Assembly (NCBI GenBank): GCA_002423325.1
Contig: DIVQ01000208.1
Location: 1,983 to 38,038, forward strand
DNA from: Anaerolineales bacterium UBA6128
GTDB lineage: Bacteria > Chloroflexota > Anaerolineae > UBA1429
Direction of reading: 5' to 3'
Length of the DNA stretch: 36,056 nucleotides
Numbering within the stretch: the first letter of the stretch is position 1; the number at the start of each line of letters is the position of its first letter. Both the position numbers and the translations under genes were made by a program. Below the pieces are notes generated by a model, which saw only the letters and a program-made list of their open reading frames with translations, searched no databases and was not told the DNA's origin. This document shows, piece by piece, positions 1,528-18,626 of the stretch.

Positions 1528-2229
1528 ATGACGCAGCAAGCGCATCAATTGGCTGTACGCATCAGCAGGACGGTCAAGCTCGACTACTGGCTGCACCTGC
1601 CGGATGGCTATGGTGAGGACGCGTCCGTCTCGTGGCCGCTGATCATCTTTTTGCACGGCATGGGCGAGCGCGGCAGCGATCTGACGCTGGTCAAGAAGCA
1701 TGGCATCCCCAAGGTCGCAGAGCAGGGCCCCGATCTGCCCTTTGTGGCGGTCTCGCCGCAATGCCCGCTCGACTCGGTCTGGACCGATCAAATCGACGCC
1801 CTGGACGCGCTGTACCGCAATATCGCCCGGCACTATGCCATCGACCGCGACCGCGTCTACCTGACGGGGCTGAGCATGGGCGGCTATGGCACTTGGCACT
1901 GGGCGACCTTGCGTCCGCGCCGTTTCGCCGCGATCGTGCCCATCTGCGGGGGGGCCATGGCGCCCTACGGCTACCCTGAGCGCGTCGCGGTGCTCAATGA
2001 TGTGCCGGTGTGGGCCTTTCACGGGGCCAGAGACCAGGTTGTGCCGCTGGCCGAGTCGCAAAAGCTGGTCGACGTGCTGGAGCGTGCGGGTGGCAACGTC
2101 CGCCTGACCGTCTACCCCGAGGCGGGCCACGACGCCTGGACCGAGACCTACGCCAATCCAGAGCTCTACGCCTGGCTGCTGGCGCAGTCGCGTGCCGCGC
2201 GTAGCGGCGCTGGCAGGTCGCGCGGGTGA
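1528..2229 (+). CDS. alpha/beta hydrolase, phospholipase/carboxylesterase (PHB-depolymerase-like esterase) family
   Basis: ATG is preceded by TAAGGAG. Contains 'LIIFLHGMGERG' (oxyanion region), the nucleophile elbow 'GLSMGGYG', 'FHGARDQVVP' (Asp) and 'GHDAW' (His), which together make a catalytic-triad layout. Confidence 0.75.
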   Translation: MTQQAHQLAVRISRTVKLDYWLHLPDGYGEDASVSWPLIIFLHGMGERGSDLTLVKKHGIPKVAEQGPDLPFVAVSPQCPLDSVWTDQIDALDALYRNIARHYAIDRDRVYLTGLSMGGYGTWHWATLRPRRFAAIVPICGGAMAPYGYPERVAVLNDVPVWAFHGARDQVVPLAESQKLVDVLERAGGNVRLTVYPEAGHDAWTETYANPELYAWLLAQSRAARSGAGRSRG

Positions 2230-2972
2230 CGGAGGCCTCACTCGTCAACGGGATCGGGCAACTGCGTGAGCGCTCGCTGCACGCAGCACTCTGCGAGTGG
2301 TGCTGCGAACCCGGCGACGCGCGCGAGGTAGAGATCGACGGCTATCGTATCGACGTGCTGCGCGGCGATCTGCTGATCGAAGTACAGACGGGCAACTTTG
2401 GCGCGTTGCGCGCCAAGCTGTCGCGCCTGCTGCAAACCCATCCTGTCCTGCTCGTGCACCCCATTCCGCTGGCCAAGTGGATCGTGCGGCTGCCCGTGGA
2501 TCCTGATGGCGTCTCGGTGCGGCGCAAGTCTCCCCGCCATGGGCGCGTCACCGACCTGTACGACGAACTGGTGCACATTCCCACGCTGACCACCCACCCG
2601 CGTTTGCAGTTGATGGTGGTGTACATCCGCGAAGAAGAGTACTGGAAGGCGGACGGCAAGGGCAGCTGGCGGCGCAAGGGCGTCAGCATCGTGGACCGCC
2701 GGTTGCTCGAGATAGTGGATACACACACCTTTGGCAGCACCGCGGATCACGCCGCGCTGCTGCCCGAGGGGCTGGATGCGTTCACCGCCCGTGACCTCTC
2801 GCAGGCGCTCAAGATTCGGCTGCCGCAGGCGCGCCGCGTGGTCTATTGCCTGCACAAGATGGGGGAGCTGGAGCAAGACGGCAAACGGGGAAGAGAGCGG
2901 GTGTGGCGAAGGGCGGGCACGCACCGCGATGACAGCGGGAGGCCCGCGTCTACAGTTTCCGCACACCCATAG
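2226..2972 (+). CDS. hypothetical protein; putative PD-(D/E)xK-like (E..D..E-x-Q variant) nuclease-fold N-terminal domain plus C-terminal winged-helix-like domain
   Basis: GTG start overlaps the esterase stop (GTGA at 2226-2229). 'YRIDVLRGDLLIEVQTGNF' resembles the D..ExQ core of CoiA-type restriction-endonuclease-fold proteins. The C-terminal 'FTARDLSQALKIRLPQARRVVYCLHKMGELEQDGKRG' looks like a wHTH. The functional call is inference. Confidence 0.5.
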   Translation: MTEASLVNGIGQLRERSLHAALCEWCCEPGDAREVEIDGYRIDVLRGDLLIEVQTGNFGALRAKLSRLLQTHPVLLVHPIPLAKWIVRLPVDPDGVSVRRKSPRHGRVTDLYDELVHIPTLTTHPRLQLMVVYIREEEYWKADGKGSWRRKGVSIVDRRLLEIVDTHTFGSTADHAALLPEGLDAFTARDLSQALKIRLPQARRVVYCLHKMGELEQDGKRGRERVWRRAGTHRDDSGRPASTVSAHP

Positions 2973-3043
2973 TTGGTAGCACATTCTCATTGCCTTCAGT
3001 CGGGGCTGCACGGAATGCGAGCGCCTCAGCCTAGCGTTTCAGT

Positions 3044-3673
3044 TCACTCTTTTTGCCATTTAAATGGCTCGGTATCAGGATAATCTCTCATATACTCGGT
3101 CATCTCCTCTTTGTTGAGTGCATACCATTCGTCGTATGGGTAACGGCGAAAAAACTCGCCTATGCGCTCTCGAAAATGTTCCTCGGCGATAGTGTTCAAT
3201 CGCCCATGTCTGAAAGACCTAAGGCTTTCCAAGTCCTCACGCGGCACACGGAGTGTCGCTGGAAAATCGACTGCCATCTTGTCCGAGAAGCCGATTTGGG
3301 TACTAGGAGGCAGGTAGAACCACTTTTGGTTTATCCGTGCGTGTTGAGTGAGGATATCCTTCCAACTCTTTGCTTTTTTCGTTTCCTTGCTCTTTCCCTC
3401 CACATCACGAAACTCGCGGATCTCGCAGAGCGTGATATCGCGGCTGCGACGAGCATCACAGTCCTGAGTGGCCACGATTGCCGCTACCACACGTACTGGC
3501 ACAATGATGCTAAGTGGGTCGCGCTGCTCTGCCAGGTCCTGCCATTTCGTAACGCGGCTACCTGTTTCGTCTGCGAGGATGACCTCCTGAAGCGAGATGT
3601 CGATTCTGGGTATCCCAAAGAAGATATCCCCTTGGCGGATTGGGTCGTCCAGATCTGGGAAATCGTAGATCAT
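3044..3673 (-). CDS. hypothetical protein (209 aa), third gene of the low-GC operon; no family recognised
   Basis: I chose ATG at 3673 rather than the ORF-track start at 3712. It is preceded by GGGAGGAGGGTGG and overlaps the upstream stop as ATGA. The product has balanced, charged, globular-looking composition (MIYDFPDLDDPIRQGDIFF..ATQDCD..). GC is about 42-50%. Confidence 0.7.
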   Translation of the reverse strand: MIYDFPDLDDPIRQGDIFFGIPRIDISLQEVILADETGSRVTKWQDLAEQRDPLSIIVPVRVVAAIVATQDCDARRSRDITLCEIREFRDVEGKSKETKKAKSWKDILTQHARINQKWFYLPPSTQIGFSDKMAVDFPATLRVPREDLESLRSFRHGRLNTIAEEHFRERIGEFFRRYPYDEWYALNKEEMTEYMRDYPDTEPFKWQKE

Positions 3674-4050
3674 CCACCCTCCTCCCACTGCATGCCGCGT
3701 TTCGCCTCCCATTCGACGATTTCTGCGCGTTCACGTTCTGCGCGCTCTAGAATGGTCCGAGAGAGAAGTAATGCTGCCGCCCACGAGATCGGTCTTCCGG
3801 ACAATCTAGGGCTTACCCACGTAACTACCGATGCATCGCGTCGCCGTCGCTCCCATGACCACAAGTCGGGAATCGCGGTGGCAGGCGATGCGGCAATACC
3901 GAGGACCACTCCTGCAACCAGCACGAATCGAGGAAGTCGCCAGATGGTATCCGGTCTCGTGACATAGCTCTGGCTCCAGAGGCCTGACGCAGATACATCG
4001 GTCTCAGTCGATCCTATCTGGAGGTCCTTAGTTGCAGAACCGCTACTCAC
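3670..4050 (-). CDS. small hypothetical protein (126 aa) with a predicted transmembrane segment; middle gene of the low-GC operon
   Basis: GTG start at 4050 overlaps the upstream TAG stop (4043-4045) by 8 nt, and its stop overlaps the downstream ATG (ATGA). It has a hydrophobic stretch 'LPRFVLVAGVVLGIAASPATAI' and a charged C-terminus 'ERAERERAEIVEWEAKRG'. There is no internal ATG, and coding status is unverified. Confidence 0.45.
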   Translation of the reverse strand: MSSGSATKDLQIGSTETDVSASGLWSQSYVTRPDTIWRLPRFVLVAGVVLGIAASPATAIPDLWSWERRRRDASVVTWVSPRLSGRPISWAAALLLSRTILERAERERAEIVEWEAKRGMQWEEGG

Positions 4051-4822
4051 CAGAGAACCTCCTTTCCAGTTCGCCTTCTATTAGCTTGAAGAACCAGTCG
4101 TCTGTTAGTTCGTGGGCTTGGTCCAACCACTCCGAGAAGCCATCAGGAAGTGCTGGGATGCTACTATGTGTTGCTTGAACTAGTGTTTCCCATATTAGAG
4201 CTTGTTTTTCCTTGTGATTTCCGACGGCGAATCTCAGAGTCATTAGGCCTCCTGGGCTGTCATTCGGAAAGGAGGCTTGCCAGTTAAAAGCCGCAGGGGT
4301 CTGCCCAACTCGCTCGCCGTCGAACAAAGTATCGGGTAATGAGATGTGGGTATTCATTTTGTCCTTAAGGAATTCAAAAACACTCTCCTGACTGAAATCC
4401 ACGTTCACAGCGTCTATGTAGCGCAGTGTTAGCTCTTGGATCATGAGCTGTTCTTTGGCAGGGTGGGCACTGAATAACCAGTCTACAGCTCTCACGCAAC
4501 GTTCCTTGAAGTCGGTCCAGATATACGCATCGGTTTCATTCACAGTCATCAGGCCCGGACCAACCTGGATGAGTGGCCATCCACCGTCTGAAGTGCGGAA
4601 CCGATGCTGTACCATATGAGCTACCATGGCATCGGGGATTTGGGCGGTTGGCAGCGCCTCGTGGAAGGGATATTCGCCCTCCACCCTTTCTGAAAGACGC
4701 CCAAGCAAGAGCCTGTAGTGCGGATCTTCTTGGATGCCTGGCGTCTTTGAGACAGGCAGTTGCCATTTCACCTCCAGAAGGGCCTCAACCAACGGCTTGT
4801 TCTTCAGGTTTTTCTTTTTCAT
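4043..4822 (-). CDS. TIGR04255-family protein (conserved hypothetical, function unknown); first gene of the low-GC operon
   Basis: ATG at 4822 is preceded by AAGAGGT. The N-terminus 'KNKPLVEALLEVKWQLP' matches my recollection of the TIGR04255 N-terminal signature (x-PL-x-E-x-x-x-E-h-x-F/W), and the length of about 260 aa fits. GC is about 45-52%. Confidence 0.65.
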   Translation of the reverse strand: MKKKNLKNKPLVEALLEVKWQLPVSKTPGIQEDPHYRLLLGRLSERVEGEYPFHEALPTAQIPDAMVAHMVQHRFRTSDGGWPLIQVGPGLMTVNETDAYIWTDFKERCVRAVDWLFSAHPAKEQLMIQELTLRYIDAVNVDFSQESVFEFLKDKMNTHISLPDTLFDGERVGQTPAAFNWQASFPNDSPGGLMTLRFAVGNHKEKQALIWETLVQATHSSIPALPDGFSEWLDQAHELTDDWFFKLIEGELERRFSGE

Positions 4823-4967
4823 TTCAACCTCTTATCTTTGCCAAGTTGCCATCCCAACAGCTTGTGCGCACATAGGGAGGCTTCTCCTTTGCATCACCAC
4901 GCGATCCAGCTCGGGCACCGCCTTATTTCGCATATTCGGCCACCGACCGTAGGCGTTGTTGGCTGCT

Positions 4968-4995
4968 ATCATATATCTGTAGCGTACTTCGTCAA
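4968..4995 (-). promoter_or_regulatory. sigma70-type promoter of the low-GC three-gene operon
   Basis: Minus strand reads TTGACG - 16 nt - TATGAT. It lies about 145 nt upstream of the ATG at 4822. Confidence 0.5.
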
Positions 4996-5086
4996 GCCGA
5001 ATTGCCAAAACGTCAACATGGCACGCCGGCGGACAAAATGCCGTGCCGCCAAGCGGCGACTCGCTGGCCTGACTTGTCCACTCCTT

Positions 5087-6040
5087 CTAGTTCACCACGT
5101 TCTGCGGCTTGCCCGCGGCAAAGGCCTTGATGTTGTCGAGGGTCGTCTGCAGCAGGCGGGCGCGCGCCGAGCGCGTGGCCCACGAGATGTGCGGCGTGAT
5201 GTGGCAGTTGTCCAGCGTGTAGAGCGGGTTGTCCAGCGCGGGCGGCTCCACCTCCAGCACGTCCAGACCGGCGCCGGTGATCGTGCCCGCCTTGAGCGCC
5301 TCGTACAGGTCGTGCTCGTTGATCACGGGTCCGCGGCTGGTGTTGATCAGAAAGGCCGTGGGCTTCATCATGCCCAGCAGGCGCGCGCTGACGAGCCCCT
5401 GGGTCTCGGGCGTCAGCGGCGAGTGCAGCGTGACCACGTCGCTCTGGCTGAACAGCGTGTCGATGTCCACAAAGCAGACGTTGTCGTCGTCGCACTCGCG
5501 CACATAGGCGTCGTAGGCCAGGACCTTCATTCCGGAGGCTTTGGCCAGCACGGCCACCTGGCGTCCGATGCGGCCAAAGCCAAAGATGCCCATCGTCAGT
5601 CCCTCTAGCTCAATGAGCGGATAGTCCCAGTAGCAGAAGGACGTGCTGCGGCTCCAGCGGCCGTCGCGCACGGTCTGCGCGTGATGGGCCACATGCTGGG
5701 TGAACTCGAGCAGGTGCGCAAAGACCATCTGCGCCACCGACTGCGTGCCATAGGTGGGCACGTTGGAGACCGGAATGCCGCGCTCGCGGCACGCTGCCAC
5801 GTCCACGATGTTGTAGCCCGTGGCGAGCACGCTGACAAAGCGCAGCGCGGGCAGCTGCTCCAGCGCCTCGCGGGTGACCAGCACCTTGTTGGTGAGGACC
5901 ACGTCAGCCTCTGCGGCCACGCGGACGACATCCTCGTTCGGCGTGTTGTCATAGATGGCGCATTCCCCGAGCGCACGCAGATCATCCCAGCTCAGGTCGC
6001 CGGGATTCAAGGTGTAGCCATCGAGTACGACAATGTTCAT
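5087..6040 (-). CDS. D-isomer-specific 2-hydroxyacid dehydrogenase (glycerate dehydrogenase/hydroxypyruvate reductase-like)
   Basis: ATG is preceded by AAGGAG. Contains the NAD-binding 'GIFGFGRIGRQVA' and the catalytic region 'NTSRGPVINE..' and 'ITPHISWAT'. The N-terminus 'MNIVVLDGYTLNPGDLSW' is typical of HprA-like enzymes. Confidence 0.85.
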   Translation of the reverse strand: MNIVVLDGYTLNPGDLSWDDLRALGECAIYDNTPNEDVVRVAAEADVVLTNKVLVTREALEQLPALRFVSVLATGYNIVDVAACRERGIPVSNVPTYGTQSVAQMVFAHLLEFTQHVAHHAQTVRDGRWSRSTSFCYWDYPLIELEGLTMGIFGFGRIGRQVAVLAKASGMKVLAYDAYVRECDDDNVCFVDIDTLFSQSDVVTLHSPLTPETQGLVSARLLGMMKPTAFLINTSRGPVINEHDLYEALKAGTITGAGLDVLEVEPPALDNPLYTLDNCHITPHISWATRSARARLLQTTLDNIKAFAAGKPQNVVN

Positions 6041-6278: not shown

Positions 6279-7163
6279 ATGATAAAGCTGCTGGTGTTGG
6301 TCCTCAAGGGCATGGCTTACGGACTCACGCACATCGTGCCCGGCCTGGGCGGCGCGCTGGTGATGATTCTGCTCGGCATCTATGGCCAGTTTGTCGATGC
6401 GGTTGGCAACATCCTGATCAGACGCGACAAGTGGAAGGAATACTTGGCCTTTCTGATCCCTCTGGGCATCGGCATGGTCATCGGCATGGTGGGCTTGGCC
6501 AGATTGATCGATGTGCTGGTGGAACGCTGGCCCGCGCCGACCCAGTTCTTCTTCATGGGGCTGGTGCTGGGTACCGTGCCAACCGTGTTTGCGATGGTCA
6601 AGGGACACAAGCCTACCGTCTGGCGCGTGCTGGCGCTCATCGCGGCGCTGGGATTGGTACTGGCTGTGCGTCTGGTCAAGGTGCCGGCGGACGCGGTCGG
6701 CGCCGCGGCCGATTTCGACACGCCCGTTGGCATTGCCTACAACCTGTTGGCCTCTTTCCTGGGGGGCGCTGCCAGCGTGACGCCGGGGCTGGATGGCTCG
6801 TATGTGCTGCTGCTCATGCGCACGTATAACGCCGCTATCGAGGCGGTGGGTGACCTCGTGCACCTGCGCATCAACTGGGGTTTTCTCGTGTCGTTGGCGG
6901 TTGGGGCAGTGGGGGGCATCGTGCTGTTCAGCAAACTGGTGGACACGGCCCTGCGCCGTGCGCCCGGGGTGGCGAGCTATGCCATTCTTGGACTGGTGGT
7001 CGGGGCGTTGTACGGGCTCTGGCCCGATAGTCTGGGCGGGGTCAACGTCGCGGCCTGTGTGCTGGCGTTCGCCGCAGGGGCGGTGGCAGCCTGGCTGCTG
7101 GGTCGCGCCACTCCGCAGGAGCCATCTGCGACGTCGGATGAGGCCGGCGCGCCTACGGCGTAG
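6279..7163 (+). CDS. DUF368 family membrane protein (family linked to undecaprenyl-phosphate translocation)
   Basis: 'GLTHIVPGLGGALVMILLGIY' and a second 'SVTPGLDGSYVLLLM' repeat match the duplicated PG-x-SG/G motif of DUF368. The protein is polytopic and hydrophobic. Confidence 0.75.
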   Translation: MIKLLVLVLKGMAYGLTHIVPGLGGALVMILLGIYGQFVDAVGNILIRRDKWKEYLAFLIPLGIGMVIGMVGLARLIDVLVERWPAPTQFFFMGLVLGTVPTVFAMVKGHKPTVWRVLALIAALGLVLAVRLVKVPADAVGAAADFDTPVGIAYNLLASFLGGAASVTPGLDGSYVLLLMRTYNAAIEAVGDLVHLRINWGFLVSLAVGAVGGIVLFSKLVDTALRRAPGVASYAILGLVVGALYGLWPDSLGGVNVAACVLAFAAGAVAAWLLGRATPQEPSATSDEAGAPTA

Positions 7164-7671
7164 CCGTCGCGCTGGGTGAGGCGCTGGCTGTAGCCGTTGG
7201 GGTGAGCGTCGCGGTGCTGGTGTGTGTGGCGGTTGGCGTGCGCGTTGCGCTGGGCGTAGAGGTGTGGATCGGCACCTCTGGCGCTGGCGTGCCTGTCGGC
7301 GCGGCCAGCAGTGGGGCGCGCGTCTGGATGGTGCCCACCGGCGATCCGCTGACCGGCGTGGCTTCAATGACGGGCAGCAGCGGGGTATAGTAGCGCGTCT
7401 GCACGGCAATGATCGTGCCGGCCGGGCCCATCAGCATGGCCGGGGCTGGTGTAGACGAAGCTGTTGCCGTCGGCGTCCACGTGGGTAAGGGTGTGCGCGC
7501 CGTCGCCCACGGGGCCGTGGGCGATGGCGCAAGAGGAGTTGGCGTCGTCGCCAGGCGGGTGATCAGCCGGCATCCCTGCAGGACCAGCGCCGCCAGGCAC
7601 ACGGCGATCAACGCCCGGCGTGTGCGCGCCGCGCGGTAAGCGACCGGCGAGGCGCTTCTTCGCATCCGCAT
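7153..7671 (-). CDS. putative lipoprotein with a Thr/Pro-rich low-complexity region
   Basis: I chose ATG at 7671 (MRMRRSAS..), preceded by GAGAGGAA. It has a signal peptide with the lipobox 'LVLQGC', and the remainder is TPTAT-type low complexity. The 3' end overlaps the DUF368 3' end by 11 nt. A high-GC artefact cannot be excluded. Confidence 0.45.
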   Translation of the reverse strand: MRMRRSASPVAYRAARTRRALIAVCLAALVLQGCRLITRLATTPTPLAPSPTAPWATARTPLPTWTPTATASSTPAPAMLMGPAGTIIAVQTRYYTPLLPVIEATPVSGSPVGTIQTRAPLLAAPTGTPAPEVPIHTSTPSATRTPTATHTSTATLTPTATASASPSATATP

Positions 7672-7736
7672 TTGGCTGTTCCTCTCGTCCCGGATCGGAT
7701 CTCCTCGGATCCTGCGCCAAGCCATTCGCAGTGTGC

Positions 7737-8090
7737 CTAGGCCAGCACCCACACCTGGCCGTCCTGCAGCCGTGTGGGGTAGGTGGTCAGGTCGCGCGGC
7801 TTGGCCACGGCCAGAGCGGCCTGGCGCACGATGCCGGGCAGGCCCTCAACCCACGCCACACAGGCGCCGGTGGTGACATCGAACTGCGACCCATGCCCGG
7901 GACACGTGACCACCTGCCCGTTCAGTTTGCCGTTGGCCAAGTGCACGCGCAGGTGCGGGCAGTGCTCCTGGGTGGCATAGTAGACGCCTCTCACCTTACA
8001 CAGCAGGATGGCGGTGGCATCCAAGTCGATGCGCTGCATCGCGCCTTCTGACAGCATGTCCTCGGGTCCCAGCGCTTGCCATTGTGCCAT
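7737..8090 (-). CDS. Rieske (2Fe-2S) domain protein
   Basis: 'CPHLRVHL' and 'CPGHGSQF' form the Rieske C-x-H ... C-x-x-H ligand pairs. I prefer the start at 8090 because it is preceded by AAGGAGAG. The ORF-track start at 8114 has no SD. Confidence 0.8.
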   Translation of the reverse strand: MAQWQALGPEDMLSEGAMQRIDLDATAILLCKVRGVYYATQEHCPHLRVHLANGKLNGQVVTCPGHGSQFDVTTGACVAWVEGLPGIVRQAALAVAKPRDLTTYPTRLQDGQVWVLA

Positions 8091-14509: not shown

Positions 14510-17500
14510 TTGCTGATTAACGCGATACTGCATGGCACCTGGATACCGGCTGATGGCTCGGAGGGCCAGCCCTTTTTTGTCTGGGCCGAGCGTTCGGCCG
14601 AACAGGTGCGCGCGCACCCCGGCAGCCCCCGCATCCAGCGACACCCCTACGCGGCCACGACTATCGAGATCGCGCACTTGCTCGACACCTACATGCCGGA
14701 CTCGGATTGGCGCAGCGCCGAACGCCTGACGCGGATCGTGTTGTTGCCTTCAACCGACAGAGCTCCGGTGATGCCCGGCTGGCTGGTGGAGGATGATATC
14801 CCCGAGCCGGGCGAGGTAGGTCTTGTGCCGTGGCGCGTCGAGGGCATTGGCGTGTCGGTGCTCGAGGTGCTCGATGTGCTAGCCGCGCTGCCGCTCGAAC
14901 AGACGCAGCCCAGGACGCAACGCGGCGTGGGCGCCGACCTGCGCTACTGGGGACTGGTCGCAAAGTTTGCGCTTGAGCTCCTGGCGCGGCAACGCTACCT
15001 TCCCGGACTGCGTGCGATGGACGAGGGCATTCATGCCGTCTGGCAGCCTGTGCTGGACGATCCTGACGACGCCGCGCGCGTGGCGACGCTGGCCAGAGGC
15101 ATGCCGCCAGCCTGTCGCGCGCTGTTGCGTGAGGGCGCCGACACCAGCGAGGCCAGCCTGCCCCCTGCTGAAGAGGTGTTGCTGAGCTTTCTCGAGCAAC
15201 TCGTTGATCACGCCGTGAGAGACTGGACCCGCCCGGCGAACGGCTCTGGCGTGCGCACTTGGGACCGACTCCTCAGTCGCACCGGGACCGGTCTGGCCGA
15301 AACCTGGTGGCGGGCGCTCTGGTCCGAAAAGCGACTGGTTGAGGCCCCCGGCAATCGCGCCGATGTGGGGCGCTTTTACCAGAGCTGGCAGAGCTGGACG
15401 CTGCGCGCGCGCCCTGCCGCCGACGTCGCCTTTCGGCTCTGCTTCCGGCTGGAGCCCCCCGACACCAATGATGTAGGCGAGACGACGCCCAACTGGACGC
15501 TGCACTATTTCTTGCAGGCCAGGGACGACCCCAGCCTGATGGTGCCGGCGCGGGACGTGTGGCACGAGCGGGGCAACGTGCTCAACTATCTGAACCGGCG
15601 CTTTGACCGGCCCCAGGAGACGTTGCTCGCTGGGCTGGGGATGGCCGCGCGCCTGTGCCCGGCCATCCAGCGCAGTCTGCGCTCCGAATGTCCAGAAGAG
15701 GCCACGATGTCTCCGCAAGAGGCCTACACCTTTTTGCGTGAGACGGCGCGCTTGCTCGAGGGTACCGGGTTTGGCGTGCTGGTGCCGCCCTGGTGGAACA
15801 AGCCTGATACACGCCTGCGCGTGCGCGCGCGGCTGCAGGCGGGCGGCGGCATCGAGGGCTCGGGCATCCTCAGCATGGATTCGCTGGTAGCCTACGACTG
15901 GGAACTGGCGCTGGGTGATGAGCCTCTCAGCCGCGAGGAATTCGAACGCCTCGCGGCGCTCAAGACGCCGCTGGTGCGCGTGCGTGGACGTTGGGTGCTG
16001 CTGCAGCCCGATCAGGTAGAGGCGGCCATCGCCTTCTGGGAGCGCCAGCGCGCCCAGAACCAGTTGCCCTTGCGCGATGCGTTGGGCTTGATGCTGGGTA
16101 CACAGACCGAGATCGACGGTCTGGACGTGACCGAGGTGAAACTCGATTCGGTGCTGCAGGACCTGATGGAGGCCCTGACGCGTGGCGAGCGCCTTGAGAC
16201 GCTGCCGCCGCCGCCCGGGTTCGTCGGCCAATTGCGGCCTTACCAGGTACGCGGCTACTCCTGGCTGGCGTTCCTGCAGCGCTGGGGCTTTGGCGCCTGT
16301 CTGGCTGATGACATGGGCCTGGGCAAGACAATCCAGGCCATTGCGCTGCTGTTGCACGATGCCGACCGGCAGCCCGACGGGCAGCCTTCGCTGGTCATCT
16401 GCCCCACTTCAGTGGTGGGGAACTGGCAGCGCGAGGTGGCGCGCTTTGGTCCCGACCTGCGCGTGATGGTGCATCATGGCGCTGGGCGGGCAGAGGGCGC
16501 CGGTTTTGTGGCGCAGACGCAGCAGAATGATCTCGTGATCAGCACCTATGGCTTGGTGCGGCGGGATATCAAAGATCTGACGCGGGTGCATTGGCGCAAC
16601 ATCATCCTGGATGAAGCGCAGAACATCAAAAATCCGCTGACCAAGCAGGCGCGCGCGGTGCGGCAATTGCTGGGAAGCAACCGCATCGCCCTGACGGGCA
16701 CGCCGATCGAAAACCACCTCACCGAACTATGGTCGATCCTCTCGTTTCTCAATCCGGGCTACCTGGGCAGTAACGACAGCTTTCGACGCAAATTCGCGCT
16801 GCCCATTGAGCGCTATCAGGATCAGACGGCCGCCGAACGTCTGCGAACATTGGTGCGACCCTTTGTGCTGCGACGACTCAAGACCGATCCGCTGGTCATC
16901 CAGGACCTGCCGGACAAGTTCGAGTCCAAGGTATACTGCAACCTGACGCGCGAGCAGGCGACTCTGTATGAGGCGGTGGTGCGCGACGCGATGGAAGCGC
17001 TGCGTGCCGTGGACCACGATGGGACCCCGATTCAACGTCGTGGCATCGTGCTGGCGATGCTGACGCGGCTCAAGCAAGTCTGCAACCACCCCACCCTCTA
17101 TCTGGGCGATGGCTCAGAGACGACGGGGCGCTCCGGCAAGCTGAATCGCCTGTGCGAGATGCTCGAGGAGGCGCTGGCCGTGGGCGACCGCGCGCTGATT
17201 TTCACACAGTTTGCGCAAATGGGCTTCCTGCTGCAGCGTCACTTGCGTGAGACGTTTGGCCAGGATGTGTTCCTGCTGCATGGCGGCACGCCGCAGAAAC
17301 AGCGCGATCGCATGCTGCAGGCGTTCCAAGAGCAGCCGGACTCACCGGCGTTGTTCGTGCTGTCACTCAAGGCGGGCGGCACGGGCCTGAACCTGATGCG
17401 CGCGAACCACGTCTTTCACTATGATCGCTGGTGGAACCCGGCGGTGGAGAATCAGGCCACGGACCGCGCCTACCGCATCGGGCAGACGCGCGATGTTCAG

Positions 17501-17677
17501 GTGCACAAGTTCATCTGCCTGGGCACGCTCGAGGAGCGCATCGACATGCTCATCGAGAGCAAGAGCGCCCTGGCCGAGAGCGTGGTGGGCGTGGGCGAAG
17601 AGAGCGTTACAGAGCTGAGTACAGACGAGCTGTACGACCTGCTGGCGCTGCGTAGGGAAGCGGTGGAGACGAGCTAG
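14510..17677 (+). CDS. SNF2-family DEAD/DEAH-box helicase with a long N-terminal SNF2-associated region
   Basis: TTG start is preceded by TGGAG. Helicase motifs present: 'LADDMGLGKT' (I), 'ILDEAQNIKN' (II), 'LTGTPIEN' (III) and 'QATDRAYRIGQ' (VI). About 600 aa lie N-terminal to the ATPase core. Confidence 0.9.
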   Translation: MLINAILHGTWIPADGSEGQPFFVWAERSAEQVRAHPGSPRIQRHPYAATTIEIAHLLDTYMPDSDWRSAERLTRIVLLPSTDRAPVMPGWLVEDDIPEPGEVGLVPWRVEGIGVSVLEVLDVLAALPLEQTQPRTQRGVGADLRYWGLVAKFALELLARQRYLPGLRAMDEGIHAVWQPVLDDPDDAARVATLARGMPPACRALLREGADTSEASLPPAEEVLLSFLEQLVDHAVRDWTRPANGSGVRTWDRLLSRTGTGLAETWWRALWSEKRLVEAPGNRADVGRFYQSWQSWTLRARPAADVAFRLCFRLEPPDTNDVGETTPNWTLHYFLQARDDPSLMVPARDVWHERGNVLNYLNRRFDRPQETLLAGLGMAARLCPAIQRSLRSECPEEATMSPQEAYTFLRETARLLEGTGFGVLVPPWWNKPDTRLRVRARLQAGGGIEGSGILSMDSLVAYDWELALGDEPLSREEFERLAALKTPLVRVRGRWVLLQPDQVEAAIAFWERQRAQNQLPLRDALGLMLGTQTEIDGLDVTEVKLDSVLQDLMEALTRGERLETLPPPPGFVGQLRPYQVRGYSWLAFLQRWGFGACLADDMGLGKTIQAIALLLHDADRQPDGQPSLVICPTSVVGNWQREVARFGPDLRVMVHHGAGRAEGAGFVAQTQQNDLVISTYGLVRRDIKDLTRVHWRNIILDEAQNIKNPLTKQARAVRQLLGSNRIALTGTPIENHLTELWSILSFLNPGYLGSNDSFRRKFALPIERYQDQTAAERLRTLVRPFVLRRLKTDPLVIQDLPDKFESKVYCNLTREQATLYEAVVRDAMEALRAVDHDGTPIQRRGIVLAMLTRLKQVCNHPTLYLGDGSETTGRSGKLNRLCEMLEEALAVGDRALIFTQFAQMGFLLQRHLRETFGQDVFLLHGGTPQKQRDRMLQAFQEQPDSPALFVLSLKAGGTGLNLMRANHVFHYDRWWNPAVENQATDRAYRIGQTRDVQVHKFICLGTLEERIDMLIESKSALAESVVGVGEESVTELSTDELYDLLALRREAVETS

Positions 17678-17678
17678 T

Positions 17679-18626
17679 ATGGTGCGCAAGGGCAAGCAGC
17701 AACAGAGTAACGAGCCGTTCTGGGTGCACGAACGCACCGACCCGATCCCGGTCATCGGAGGCCTGCGGGCGCGCAGCCAGCGCGGCGCCTTTACACAGAC
17801 CTGGTGGGCGACGGCGTGGGAGCAAGCGCTGCTGAGCTGGATCGACGCCGGCCGGCTGAGTCGTGGCAAGACGTATGCTCGGCGCGGCCAGGTGGTTGAA
17901 CTCGAGATCCATCCGGGCCAGGTGCTCGCGCGCGTGCAGGGCTCGCGCCCCACGCCTTACCGGCTGCGGATCGCGATCCAGCCGTTCAGCGATGCGGAGT
18001 GGGCGCGCGTGGTGGACAGCCTGTCGCAGCAGGCGGGCTACAGCGCAATGCTGCTCAACGGACAAATGCCCCGCGAGATCGAGCGGTTGTTTGACGATCT
18101 GGGGCTTTCGCTATTCCCCAGTGCCGAGTCCGACGTGCTGATGGCCTGCTCGTGCCCGGATGGCGACGCGGCCTGTAAGCACCTTGCGGCGGTGCTGTTG
18201 CTGGTGGGCGAACGCCTCGACCTCGACCCCTTTCTGCTCTTTGTGTTGCGAGGCCGCACGCGTGACCAAGTGGTCCAGGCCCTGCGCGAGCGACGGGCAG
18301 ACCGGCTCGAGTTGGCGAGCGACAGCGAACGGGTGGTTGAGCAGCCGTTGTACGAGGACGAGCCTGTGCACAGCAGCGGCATAGACCTCGAGCGGTTCTG
18401 GCAGCCCGGCCCGGAGCTGGCCGCTCTGCAGATCAGGGTGCGGCCGCCCGAAGTCTCGCACGAGGTACTGCAAGTGCTGGGCGAGCCCGGCTTTGCCCAG
18501 GACACCCCCATGCAGGATCGGCTGATGCGCGTCTATGACGCGGTGACGGAGCGAGCCCTGGAGGTAGCCTTTGAGGAGCCCCCCGAGTCCGCTCCCGAGA
18601 ACGGCGGCGCTGATAACGGCCAGTAG
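17679..18626 (+). CDS. SWIM zinc-finger domain protein
   Basis: ATG lies 1 nt after the SNF2 stop. 'CSCPDGDAACKHLAAVLL' matches the SWIM C-x-C-x(n)-C-x-H signature. Confidence 0.85.
   Translation: MVRKGKQQQSNEPFWVHERTDPIPVIGGLRARSQRGAFTQTWWATAWEQALLSWIDAGRLSRGKTYARRGQVVELEIHPGQVLARVQGSRPTPYRLRIAIQPFSDAEWARVVDSLSQQAGYSAMLLNGQMPREIERLFDDLGLSLFPSAESDVLMACSCPDGDAACKHLAAVLLLVGERLDLDPFLLFVLRGRTRDQVVQALRERRADRLELASDSERVVEQPLYEDEPVHSSGIDLERFWQPGPELAALQIRVRPPEVSHEVLQVLGEPGFAQDTPMQDRLMRVYDAVTERALEVAFEEPPESAPENGGADNGQ

Follow-up and report, generated by a model that had tools for sequence, protein, structure and literature searches.

A 2.2-kb low-GC insertion in Anaerolineales bacterium UBA6128 carries a three-gene, toxin-antitoxin-like candidate defence cassette

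Genes and features of the locus

A 36,056-nt stretch of the genome of Anaerolineales bacterium UBA6128 (contig DIVQ01000208.1, positions 1,983 to 38,038; hereafter the window) contains a low-GC island between two convergent genes, encoding a DUF8091 (PF26351) protein and a D-2-hydroxyacid dehydrogenase (Table 1). The insert consists of a single operon on the minus strand, with short flanks; its three genes, here called A, B and C, are translationally coupled. We describe how the island came to lie there, what its genes may encode, and where else the same cassette is found.

Table 1. Features of the island and its flanks, in window coordinates (GC3, GC content at third codon positions; AF2, AlphaFold2)
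Feature	Position	Strand	Description and basis
Inserted DNA (low-GC island)	2926..5086	no strand	2161 bp; 1-nt 'C' ambiguity at junctions; blastn, junction alignments, composition
Gene A	4043..4822	-	259 aa; TIGR04255 family; predicted TBP-like/helix-grip pseudo-two-fold; NCBIfam, AF2, Foldseek
Gene B	3670..4050	-	126 aa; proposed neutraliser of C; tblastn conservation, inspection of open reading frames, C-terminal motif
Gene C	3044..3673	-	209 aa; proposed effector (toxin); predicted MazF/PemK-like fold; homologues, AF2, Foldseek
Orphan upstream insert flank	4823..5086	-	GC 0.553; no counterpart beside other cassette copies
Orphan downstream insert flank	2926..3043	-	GC ~0.56; first 47 nt form the new DUF8091 3' end
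Candidate sigma-70-like promoter	4968..4995	-	TTGACG-16-TATGAT; 10/12 match; in insert, 146 nt upstream of A
DUF8091 (PF26351) gene	2226..2972	+	native host flank; GC3 0.81
D-2-hydroxyacid dehydrogenase gene	5087..6040	-	host flank; GC3 0.89; stop codon abuts right junction

Composition of the island and its empty site

The composition of the patch was far outside chance. The GC content of 2926-5086 was 0.533, compared with 0.651 ± 0.016 in same-size windows elsewhere (z = -7.4; 148 windows of the non-overlapping region), its tetranucleotide distance was 0.480 versus 0.193 ± 0.018 (z = +15.6), and its Karlin delta* was 121 versus 46 ± 15 (z = 5.0). Sliding-window GC fell from ~0.65-0.68 to 0.49-0.58 between ~2900 and ~5100. 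The three island genes had GC3 values of 0.57, 0.55 and 0.58, well outside the range of 0.75-0.89 in all 25 other called genes, the latter being open reading frames (ORFs) picked by codon-position GC. Base composition and codon-position GC were thus both atypical in 2926-5086, as is expected of a horizontally acquired island. An earlier reading of the letters alone (the sequence-only reading) had proposed a low-GC island at 2975-5010 with a drop of about 20 points. That interval has a GC content of 52.7% against 65.0% for the window outside it, and no other 2-kb stretch of the 36 kb is as low, so the island was confirmed, whereas the mean drop was smaller, at ~12 points (~25-30 at third codon positions).

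Two related metagenomic contigs, L123 and L124, which were reached via homologues of the flanking DUF8091 protein, have an empty site. L123 (GC 0.655; 73-84% DNA identity to the window) has the same gene order as the window on both sides, ABC2-ABC2-esterase-DUF8091 on the left and dehydrogenase-VCA0040-like-...-GHMP kinase-GH38-GFO_IDH on the right, and lacks the cassette, the convergent DUF8091 and dehydrogenase genes abutting. By blastn, it matched positions 1-2924 and 5087-6040 of the window, with zero match between them. Its junction reads ACGCAC-TAG-TTGACC, in which the two convergent stops share CTAG, and the aligned window reads ACGCAC-[2161 bp]-TAGTTCACC. The same empty junction, again with the DUF8091 and dehydrogenase stops sharing CTAG, was present in L124. 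Because both contigs keep the flanks with DUF8091 and dehydrogenase abutting and nothing between them, the patch at 2926-5086 is almost certainly a horizontal insertion. Illegitimate recombination would have placed it where the two convergent genes shared their overlapping stops. These two independent relatives, in which the flanking genes are adjacent and from which the cassette is missing, provide the comparison that the sequence-only reading had proposed, and together with the composition they support its view that exactly one operon was recently acquired. Of the boundaries it had given, the right one stood (5086/5087), and the left one moved to 2925/2926, which puts it 47 nt short of the upstream gene's stop. 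The insertion removed the original stop of the DUF8091 gene (+), which now continues 15-16 codons into foreign DNA (2926-2972), giving a protein of 248 aa in the window versus 231-232 aa in relatives.

All contigs that come from the window's own organism (four to five samples) carried the insert at ~100% identity. Exact-protein look-ups of the flanking genes likewise returned island-carrying contigs only and no empty site, and a metagenome scan with the dehydrogenase yielded only relatives at <=66% identity, none of them syntenic.

No integrase or transposase domain was detected in the insert with Pfam and NCBIfam, and no tRNA genes or Rfam RNAs were found. At the junctions, a single ambiguous C was the only possible target duplication, and neither flanking repeats (direct or inverted) nor terminal inverted repeats were found. 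The absence of integrase, transposase, tRNA and flanking direct repeats, which had been remarked on from the letters, thus held up in these searches. An integron cassette, an insertion sequence (IS) element and an integrative element were all considered and rejected, because there were no junction repeats or terminal inverted repeats beyond chance. Similarity to the nearest cassette copies (70-77% DNA identity; blastn, tblastx) extends from ~9 nt before the A start to ~0-20 nt past the C stop. Since it ends at the operon ends, the window's 255-bp upstream and ~100-bp downstream stretches are orphan, and the same comparisons revealed no terminal element shared among cassette copies. In the insert flanks (4823-5086 and 2926-3043), RNA folds were not significant and no terminator was predicted beyond chance. 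The cassette may be expressed in the window from the weak σ70-like site or by read-through from the dehydrogenase gene, the latter being equally possible because no terminator is predicted.

The A-B-C operon

Gene A matched the NCBIfam profile TIGR04255.1 with 119.2 bits (cut-off 30; E = 2.5e-34), residues 6-256 aligning with positions 2-251 of 252, and its homologues were 54-78% identical. The AlphaFold2 model of A, with a predicted local distance difference test score (pLDDT) of 90, has two beta-alpha-beta4-alpha halves. Foldseek gave weak matches of this model to the TATA-binding protein (TBP), S-adenosylmethionine decarboxylase (AdoMetDC) and di-domain aromatase/cyclase (ARO/CYC) proteins, and a viral structure library returned an unnamed 202-aa viral protein (E = 4e-7) as well as VETF-like factors. 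TBP-like domains fused to or partnering defence RNases are already on record (PMC3710099). A full-text search found no paper on TIGR04255. The cassette was likewise not described in the literature retrieved on DUF8091, on MazF-like embedded systems or on the drmD/drmMI setting.

Remote TIGR04255 relatives with 24-25% identity were also seen in two other conflict-type settings. In Thermus brockianus pTB1 (L125:3881-6297), the gene stands beside VapBC and a DNA methylase. In a plasmid prophage of Pantoea sp. Lij88 (L126:4983-6831), it occupies an accessory slot between lysis genes and the terminase, and two small unknown genes follow it. The neighbours of these Thermus and Pantoea genes are unrelated to B and C.

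Gene B starts with GTG, preceded by GGAGG, and overlaps the A stop by 8 nt. The protein varies at its N-terminus, contains a hydrophobic segment, 'SP.TA..DPW..RRRD', and ends in a Glu-rich helix that is strongly conserved and has the motif GR.ISR.EAL.IA.QILE.AE.ERL..AE.EA.RGIQWE. In ~23 loci, tblastn placed B (28-61% identity) between A and C, and this conservation at the protein level shows that it is a real gene. Gene finders left it uncalled in the contigs of the window's organism (L001-L003) and called it in L128 and L130, so automated surveys may see only an A and C pair with a 370-nt gap and miss the triad. A transmembrane B was considered and is inconsistent with the 19-residue Kyte-Doolittle averages of 0.56-2.17 across homologues; a membrane anchor in B is therefore uncertain. 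The Glu-rich helix, with its conserved aromatics, is reminiscent of the C-terminal tail of MazE. Neither B nor C had a match in Pfam, NCBIfam, PADLOC or PHROGs.

The ATG of gene C lies in an ATGA overlap with the B stop, and this overlap is present nearly everywhere among the loci. B and C are thus adjacent, co-directional, translationally coupled small genes, which is the arrangement of type II toxin-antitoxin (TA) pairs. A longer C ORF of 222 aa is unsupported, because all homologues begin with MIY. A total of 994 C homologues were found, and the best 120, those listed, are 66-83% identical and all annotated as hypothetical; the close alignment had a mean column identity of 76%. A HMMER scan of 1.84 billion representative proteins resolved the family into 284 clusters (50% identity), nearly all of ~210 aa. 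Among 48 diverse members, G15 and D16 (QGDIF motif), Q70 and C72 were invariant, and the residues conserved in at least 90% included D73, Y120-L121-P122, H166, R168, R177 and W183-Y184.

The AlphaFold2 model of C had a pLDDT of 80 and a predicted template modelling score (pTM) of 0.71. The top 50 Foldseek matches in the PDB were nearly all MazF/PemK-type toxins (M. tuberculosis MazF-mt3, B. subtilis and S. aureus MazF, MoxT), together with the type III toxin CptN. E-values ranged from 3e-3 to 0.13, most probabilities were >0.9, and TM-scores were mostly 0.5-0.66 when normalised to the target and 0.3-0.38 when normalised to the query. Additionally, three motifs of C appear to follow the order of the MazF hallmarks, namely an N-terminal GD[IV][FYW] strand, [ST]-Q ending a central strand, and an R..L...G.L strand followed by a C-terminal helix. 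The Thr or Ser just before the invariant Gln of C would lie at the end of the strand that bears the catalytic Thr in MazF and Kid. On the basis of the model, C probably has a MazF/CcdB-like fold; membership of the PemK family is not established at the sequence level.

Distribution and natural variants of the cassette

In a species-dereplicated genome scan, C was found in 34 loci from more than ten phyla at 53-75% identity, and all searches together gave 53-83% across phyla. The hosts include Latescibacteria, Desulfobacterota, Entotheonella, Nitrospirota, Planctomycetota, Gamma- and Alphaproteobacteria, Synergistota, Acidobacteriota, Myxococcota and others, so that close homologues occur in phylogenetically distant hosts, as expected of horizontally acquired DNA. 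The order A-B-C, with abutting or overlapping genes, was kept in ~27 of the 34 loci (tblastn and ORF inspection), and conservation decreased from C to A to B. The GC content of the cassette was below that of its flanks in 33 of the 34 hosts, also inside the defence loci described below. In the hosts L004-L037, L128 and L130, whose own GC content is ~0.37-0.72, that of the cassette was 0.33-0.62 and only partly tracked the host. C was absent from 72,556 plasmids and 50,697 phages by tblastn and from IMG/VR by scanning, leaving a phage- or plasmid-borne origin unsupported. Judged from these comparisons, A-B-C is a mobile cross-phylum module.

Several variants change the make-up of the cassette. 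Two gammaproteobacterial metagenome-assembled genomes (MAGs) carry a degenerate cassette in which an in-frame fusion, A(1-50)::B(84-124), stands directly upstream of an intact C (L019:5508-6421 and L020:7630-8624). In a Pyrinomonadaceae/Acidobacteriota variant, a 63-aa B' that consists only of the B C-terminal helix motif lies upstream of a C-domain protein of 393-433 aa, in which the C domain (TQECD, not TQDCD) is fused to a ~200-aa helical extension. A 566-aa HerA-like ATPase (PADLOC HerA, E = 1e-47) comes after the fused C in L028:3940-7154, L031:7813-10956 and L033:7813-11012. In a long-read MAG, the C-terminal helix of B is still encoded after a 1-nt frameshift (L012:7930-8004), which is either a sequencing error or a pseudogene. 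These variants show that A is dispensable and that the B tail accompanies every intact C, and this retention of the B helix fits the expectation for a neutraliser and its toxin.

Association with defence loci

Five copies of the cassette (L004-L007 and L128) are flanked, on the same strand, by the PglX methyltransferase and PglZ genes of a bacteriophage exclusion (BREX) system; these loci also encode BrxC/DUF6079, and L005 a BrxH-type helicase as well. In L008, L013 and L130-L137, the cassette has the gene for the DrmD SNF2 helicase on one side and that for the DUF1156 methylase DrmMI on the other, both belonging to a defence island system associated with restriction-modification (DISARM). One C variant was present in 74 collection blocks, of which 24 contigs were read, and 8/8 places shown were in DISARM. 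The gene upstream of the cassette in L022 encodes the HmaA helicase (E = 3e-210). The gaps to the BREX and DISARM core genes are 10-60 nt, on the same strand, in several unrelated lineages. The embedded BREX and DISARM cassettes have no upstream region of their own and are therefore presumably co-transcribed. The remaining loci, including the window, have mixed neighbours, mostly housekeeping genes. Embedding in or proximity to defence genes thus characterises the BREX, DISARM, HmaA and HerA contexts and does not extend to the window's copy.

A small conserved ORF was observed between C and the next system gene in the DISARM copies, where it encodes 102 aa (L130:5746-6054, with equivalents in L131-L137). 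A 73-aa ORF follows C in the BREX-embedded copy L128:9890-10111, and the window's copy has no such ORF.

Embedding has been experimentally validated as a predictor of defence genes ('guilt by embedding'; bioRxiv 10.1101/2024.01.29.577857), and that work with its supplements mentions neither TIGR04255 nor a MazF-like candidate. The association of the cassette with BREX, DISARM and Hma had been missed by the sequence-only reading, as had the fact that the middle gene, B, is real and conserved.

Proposed function and alternative explanations

With a probability of roughly 0.6, we consider the window's copy to be a horizontally acquired, stand-alone, TA-like candidate anti-phage module. Observed here are the insertion, the anatomy of the operon and its conservation, distribution and embedding, whereas protein roles, RNase activity and defence function are inferred. 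A-B-C would work as a defence module of the abortive-infection type. C would be the effector, with a MazF/CcdB-fold core and extra elements, and most likely an endoribonuclease among the activities considered, although we put RNase activity itself at somewhat less than even odds. B, translationally coupled to C, would hold C inactive via its Glu-rich C-terminal helix, as the MazE tail blocks MazF, and A would be a TBP-like platform, acting as a sensor or adaptor that links a phage cue (nucleic acid or ligand) to the release of C. Inside BREX or DISARM, or beside Hma, the cassette could form a second line of defence once the methylation-based system has been evaded. We tentatively extend this scheme, as a possibility that falls a little short of an even chance, to an undescribed tripartite immune module in which a TBP-like sensor, together with a small and possibly membrane-associated inhibitor that has an acidic helix at its C-terminus, would control MazF-fold effectors of a new, exceptionally conserved family with the QxCD motif and His, serving as a portable back-up (BREX, DISARM, Hma) or alone.

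A number of observations weigh against this proposal. Regarding the fold of C, the Foldseek E-values are marginal, none being <=1e-3, and they were obtained with a model of pLDDT 80. Neither C nor 48 diverse relatives matched Pfam, including PF02452 PemK_toxin; PDB sequence searches with single proteins and two profiles gave no link between C and MazF; and hhalign detected no significant similarity between the C profiles and MazF of B. subtilis (probability <1%). The invariant Q-x-C-D and His166 differ from the catalytic set of MazF, so a different chemistry is possible. B has no DNA-binding domain recognisable with Pfam or NCBIfam, a feature expected of type II antitoxins, and its best 19-residue Kyte-Doolittle average, 2.17 in the window and 0.56-2.0 in homologues, is not uniformly membrane-like. 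None of the three proteins matched PADLOC-DB 2.0.0. Only a minority of the 34 loci lie beside recognised defence genes, and the neighbours of the window's copy are ordinary metabolic genes. In addition, the insert lacks the mobility signatures of a genomic island, which leaves the movement of the cassette without an explaining signature, and the promoter call is at chance level, two sigma-70-like sites being found against 1.5 expected.

Some of these observations would also suit a purely selfish TA addiction module, for which defence loci are merely permissive, high-turnover regions and which brings no anti-phage benefit. The TA-like anatomy and the predicted MazF-like fold agree with such a module, as do the lack of a PADLOC model, the many loci outside recognisable defence contexts, the window included, and the AT shift of the cassette across hosts (33/34), which selfish DNA tends to show. 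We regard this explanation as unlikely, because the strict same-strand position between BREX or DISARM core genes is a pattern experimentally shown to predict defence genes, absence from 72,556 plasmids, 50,697 phages and IMG/VR would be unusual for an addiction module, and a third conserved gene, A, is unnecessary for simple addiction. The chemistry of C raises a further question, as the operon could still be an imported conflict module with C acting as a cysteine-dependent enzyme (a protease, deamidase or other modifier) through Q70-x-C72-D73 and His166. The conservation pattern would suit such an enzyme, given that only G15, D16, Q70 and C72 are invariant among the 48 members, with D73 and H166 in at least 90%; equivalents of the catalytic Arg and Thr of MazF are not establishable by sequence, and with marginal Foldseek scores the resemblance to MazF would then reflect a shared beta-barrel scaffold. 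This possibility appears rather improbable, since MazF, PemK and CptN toxins make up nearly all of the top 50 structural matches, with no cysteine hydrolase among them, and the Thr or Ser that precedes the invariant Gln would lie at the end of the strand on which MazF and Kid have their catalytic Thr.

The insertion itself could be questioned if the cassette were ancestral at the site and had been deleted in the L123 and L124 lineages, its low GC content reflecting functional or amino-acid constraint. Only two empty-site relatives were found, 16-27% divergent from the window in DNA, and the AT shift across hosts could partly be such an intrinsic constraint. A deletion, however, would need to have recreated the exact CTAG stop overlap in both L123 and L124, and the window's DUF8091 ORF runs into foreign DNA and is 16-17 aa longer. 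GC3, which is largely unconstrained, is 0.55-0.58 in the island genes versus 0.75-0.89 in the others, and the closest relatives of all three proteins come from other phyla and from BREX loci. An ancestral cassette is thus very improbable, and horizontal acquisition of a TA-like candidate anti-phage module continues to be our preferred reading.

Comparison with known systems

The island itself is ordinary, a textbook small horizontal insertion, now with an empty site. It resembles atypical horizontally acquired islets in its low GC and GC3, odd oligonucleotide usage, empty site and patchy cross-phylum spread. Unlike classical integrative islands, it measures 2.2 kb, comprises one operon and lacks an integrase, a tRNA target, direct repeats and IS elements.

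The B-C pair is comparable to MazEF and PemIK (Kid-Kis), in which the stop of a small upstream gene overlaps the start of the downstream effector; moreover, the predicted fold of C best matches MazF, and the toxin is more conserved than its partner. C differs from MazF in being double its size, through an insertion and a helical extension at the C-terminus, in carrying the invariant QxCD plus His, and in having no sequence match to PF02452 or to MazF in the PDB. B differs from the antitoxins of these systems in having no AbrB, ribbon-helix-helix or helix-turn-helix domain, and a third conserved gene (TIGR04255) precedes the pair.

In the embedded copies, an effector module is nested on the same strand among methylation-based defence genes, like PrrC in the EcoprrI type Ic restriction-modification locus and BrxU in BREX. 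The likeness is one of arrangement; PrrC (ABC-ATPase plus HEPN) and BrxU (GmrSD-like) are unrelated proteins, and the cassette also stands alone. The logic of embedded defence genes as a back-up layer has been described (bioRxiv 10.1101/2024.01.29.577857). In its predicted roles, the cassette is also similar to HEC-07 (Hma-embedded candidate) and to RNase LS/TBP fusions, which, in a defence context, join a TBP-/AdoMetDC-like double-wing domain to an RNase effector of TA type. In those systems, a single polypeptide includes the RelE or HEPN RNase domain, whereas here A and C are separate with B between them.

Unlike the island, its cargo appears undescribed, because no publication on TIGR04255 was found, B and C lack models, and the searchable embedded-defence literature does not mention it. 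A-B-C could nevertheless be among the unnamed candidates of recent large screens.

Other genes in the window

Two further regions of the window were recorded. The minus-strand ORF at 7153-7752 encodes 199 aa with Thr/Pro/Ala/Ser-rich repeats (…TPTATHTSTATLTPTATASASPSATATP) and is called at 94-199 aa, differing among contigs of the window's organism, which points to a low-complexity linker-type protein or an artefact. On the plus strand, 14510-18626 encodes an SNF2-family helicase of 1055 aa that has DUF3670 (Pfam) at its N-terminus, followed directly by a 315-aa ORF.

Implications

The cassette would give TIGR04255, a curated NCBI family, its first functional context. C represents a compact family without an existing model, ~70% identical across phyla and repeatedly nested in BREX and DISARM. 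At 1.8 kb, the cassette is a clonable candidate for a new defence system, and it could be used to probe how embedded modules back up methylation-based immunity.

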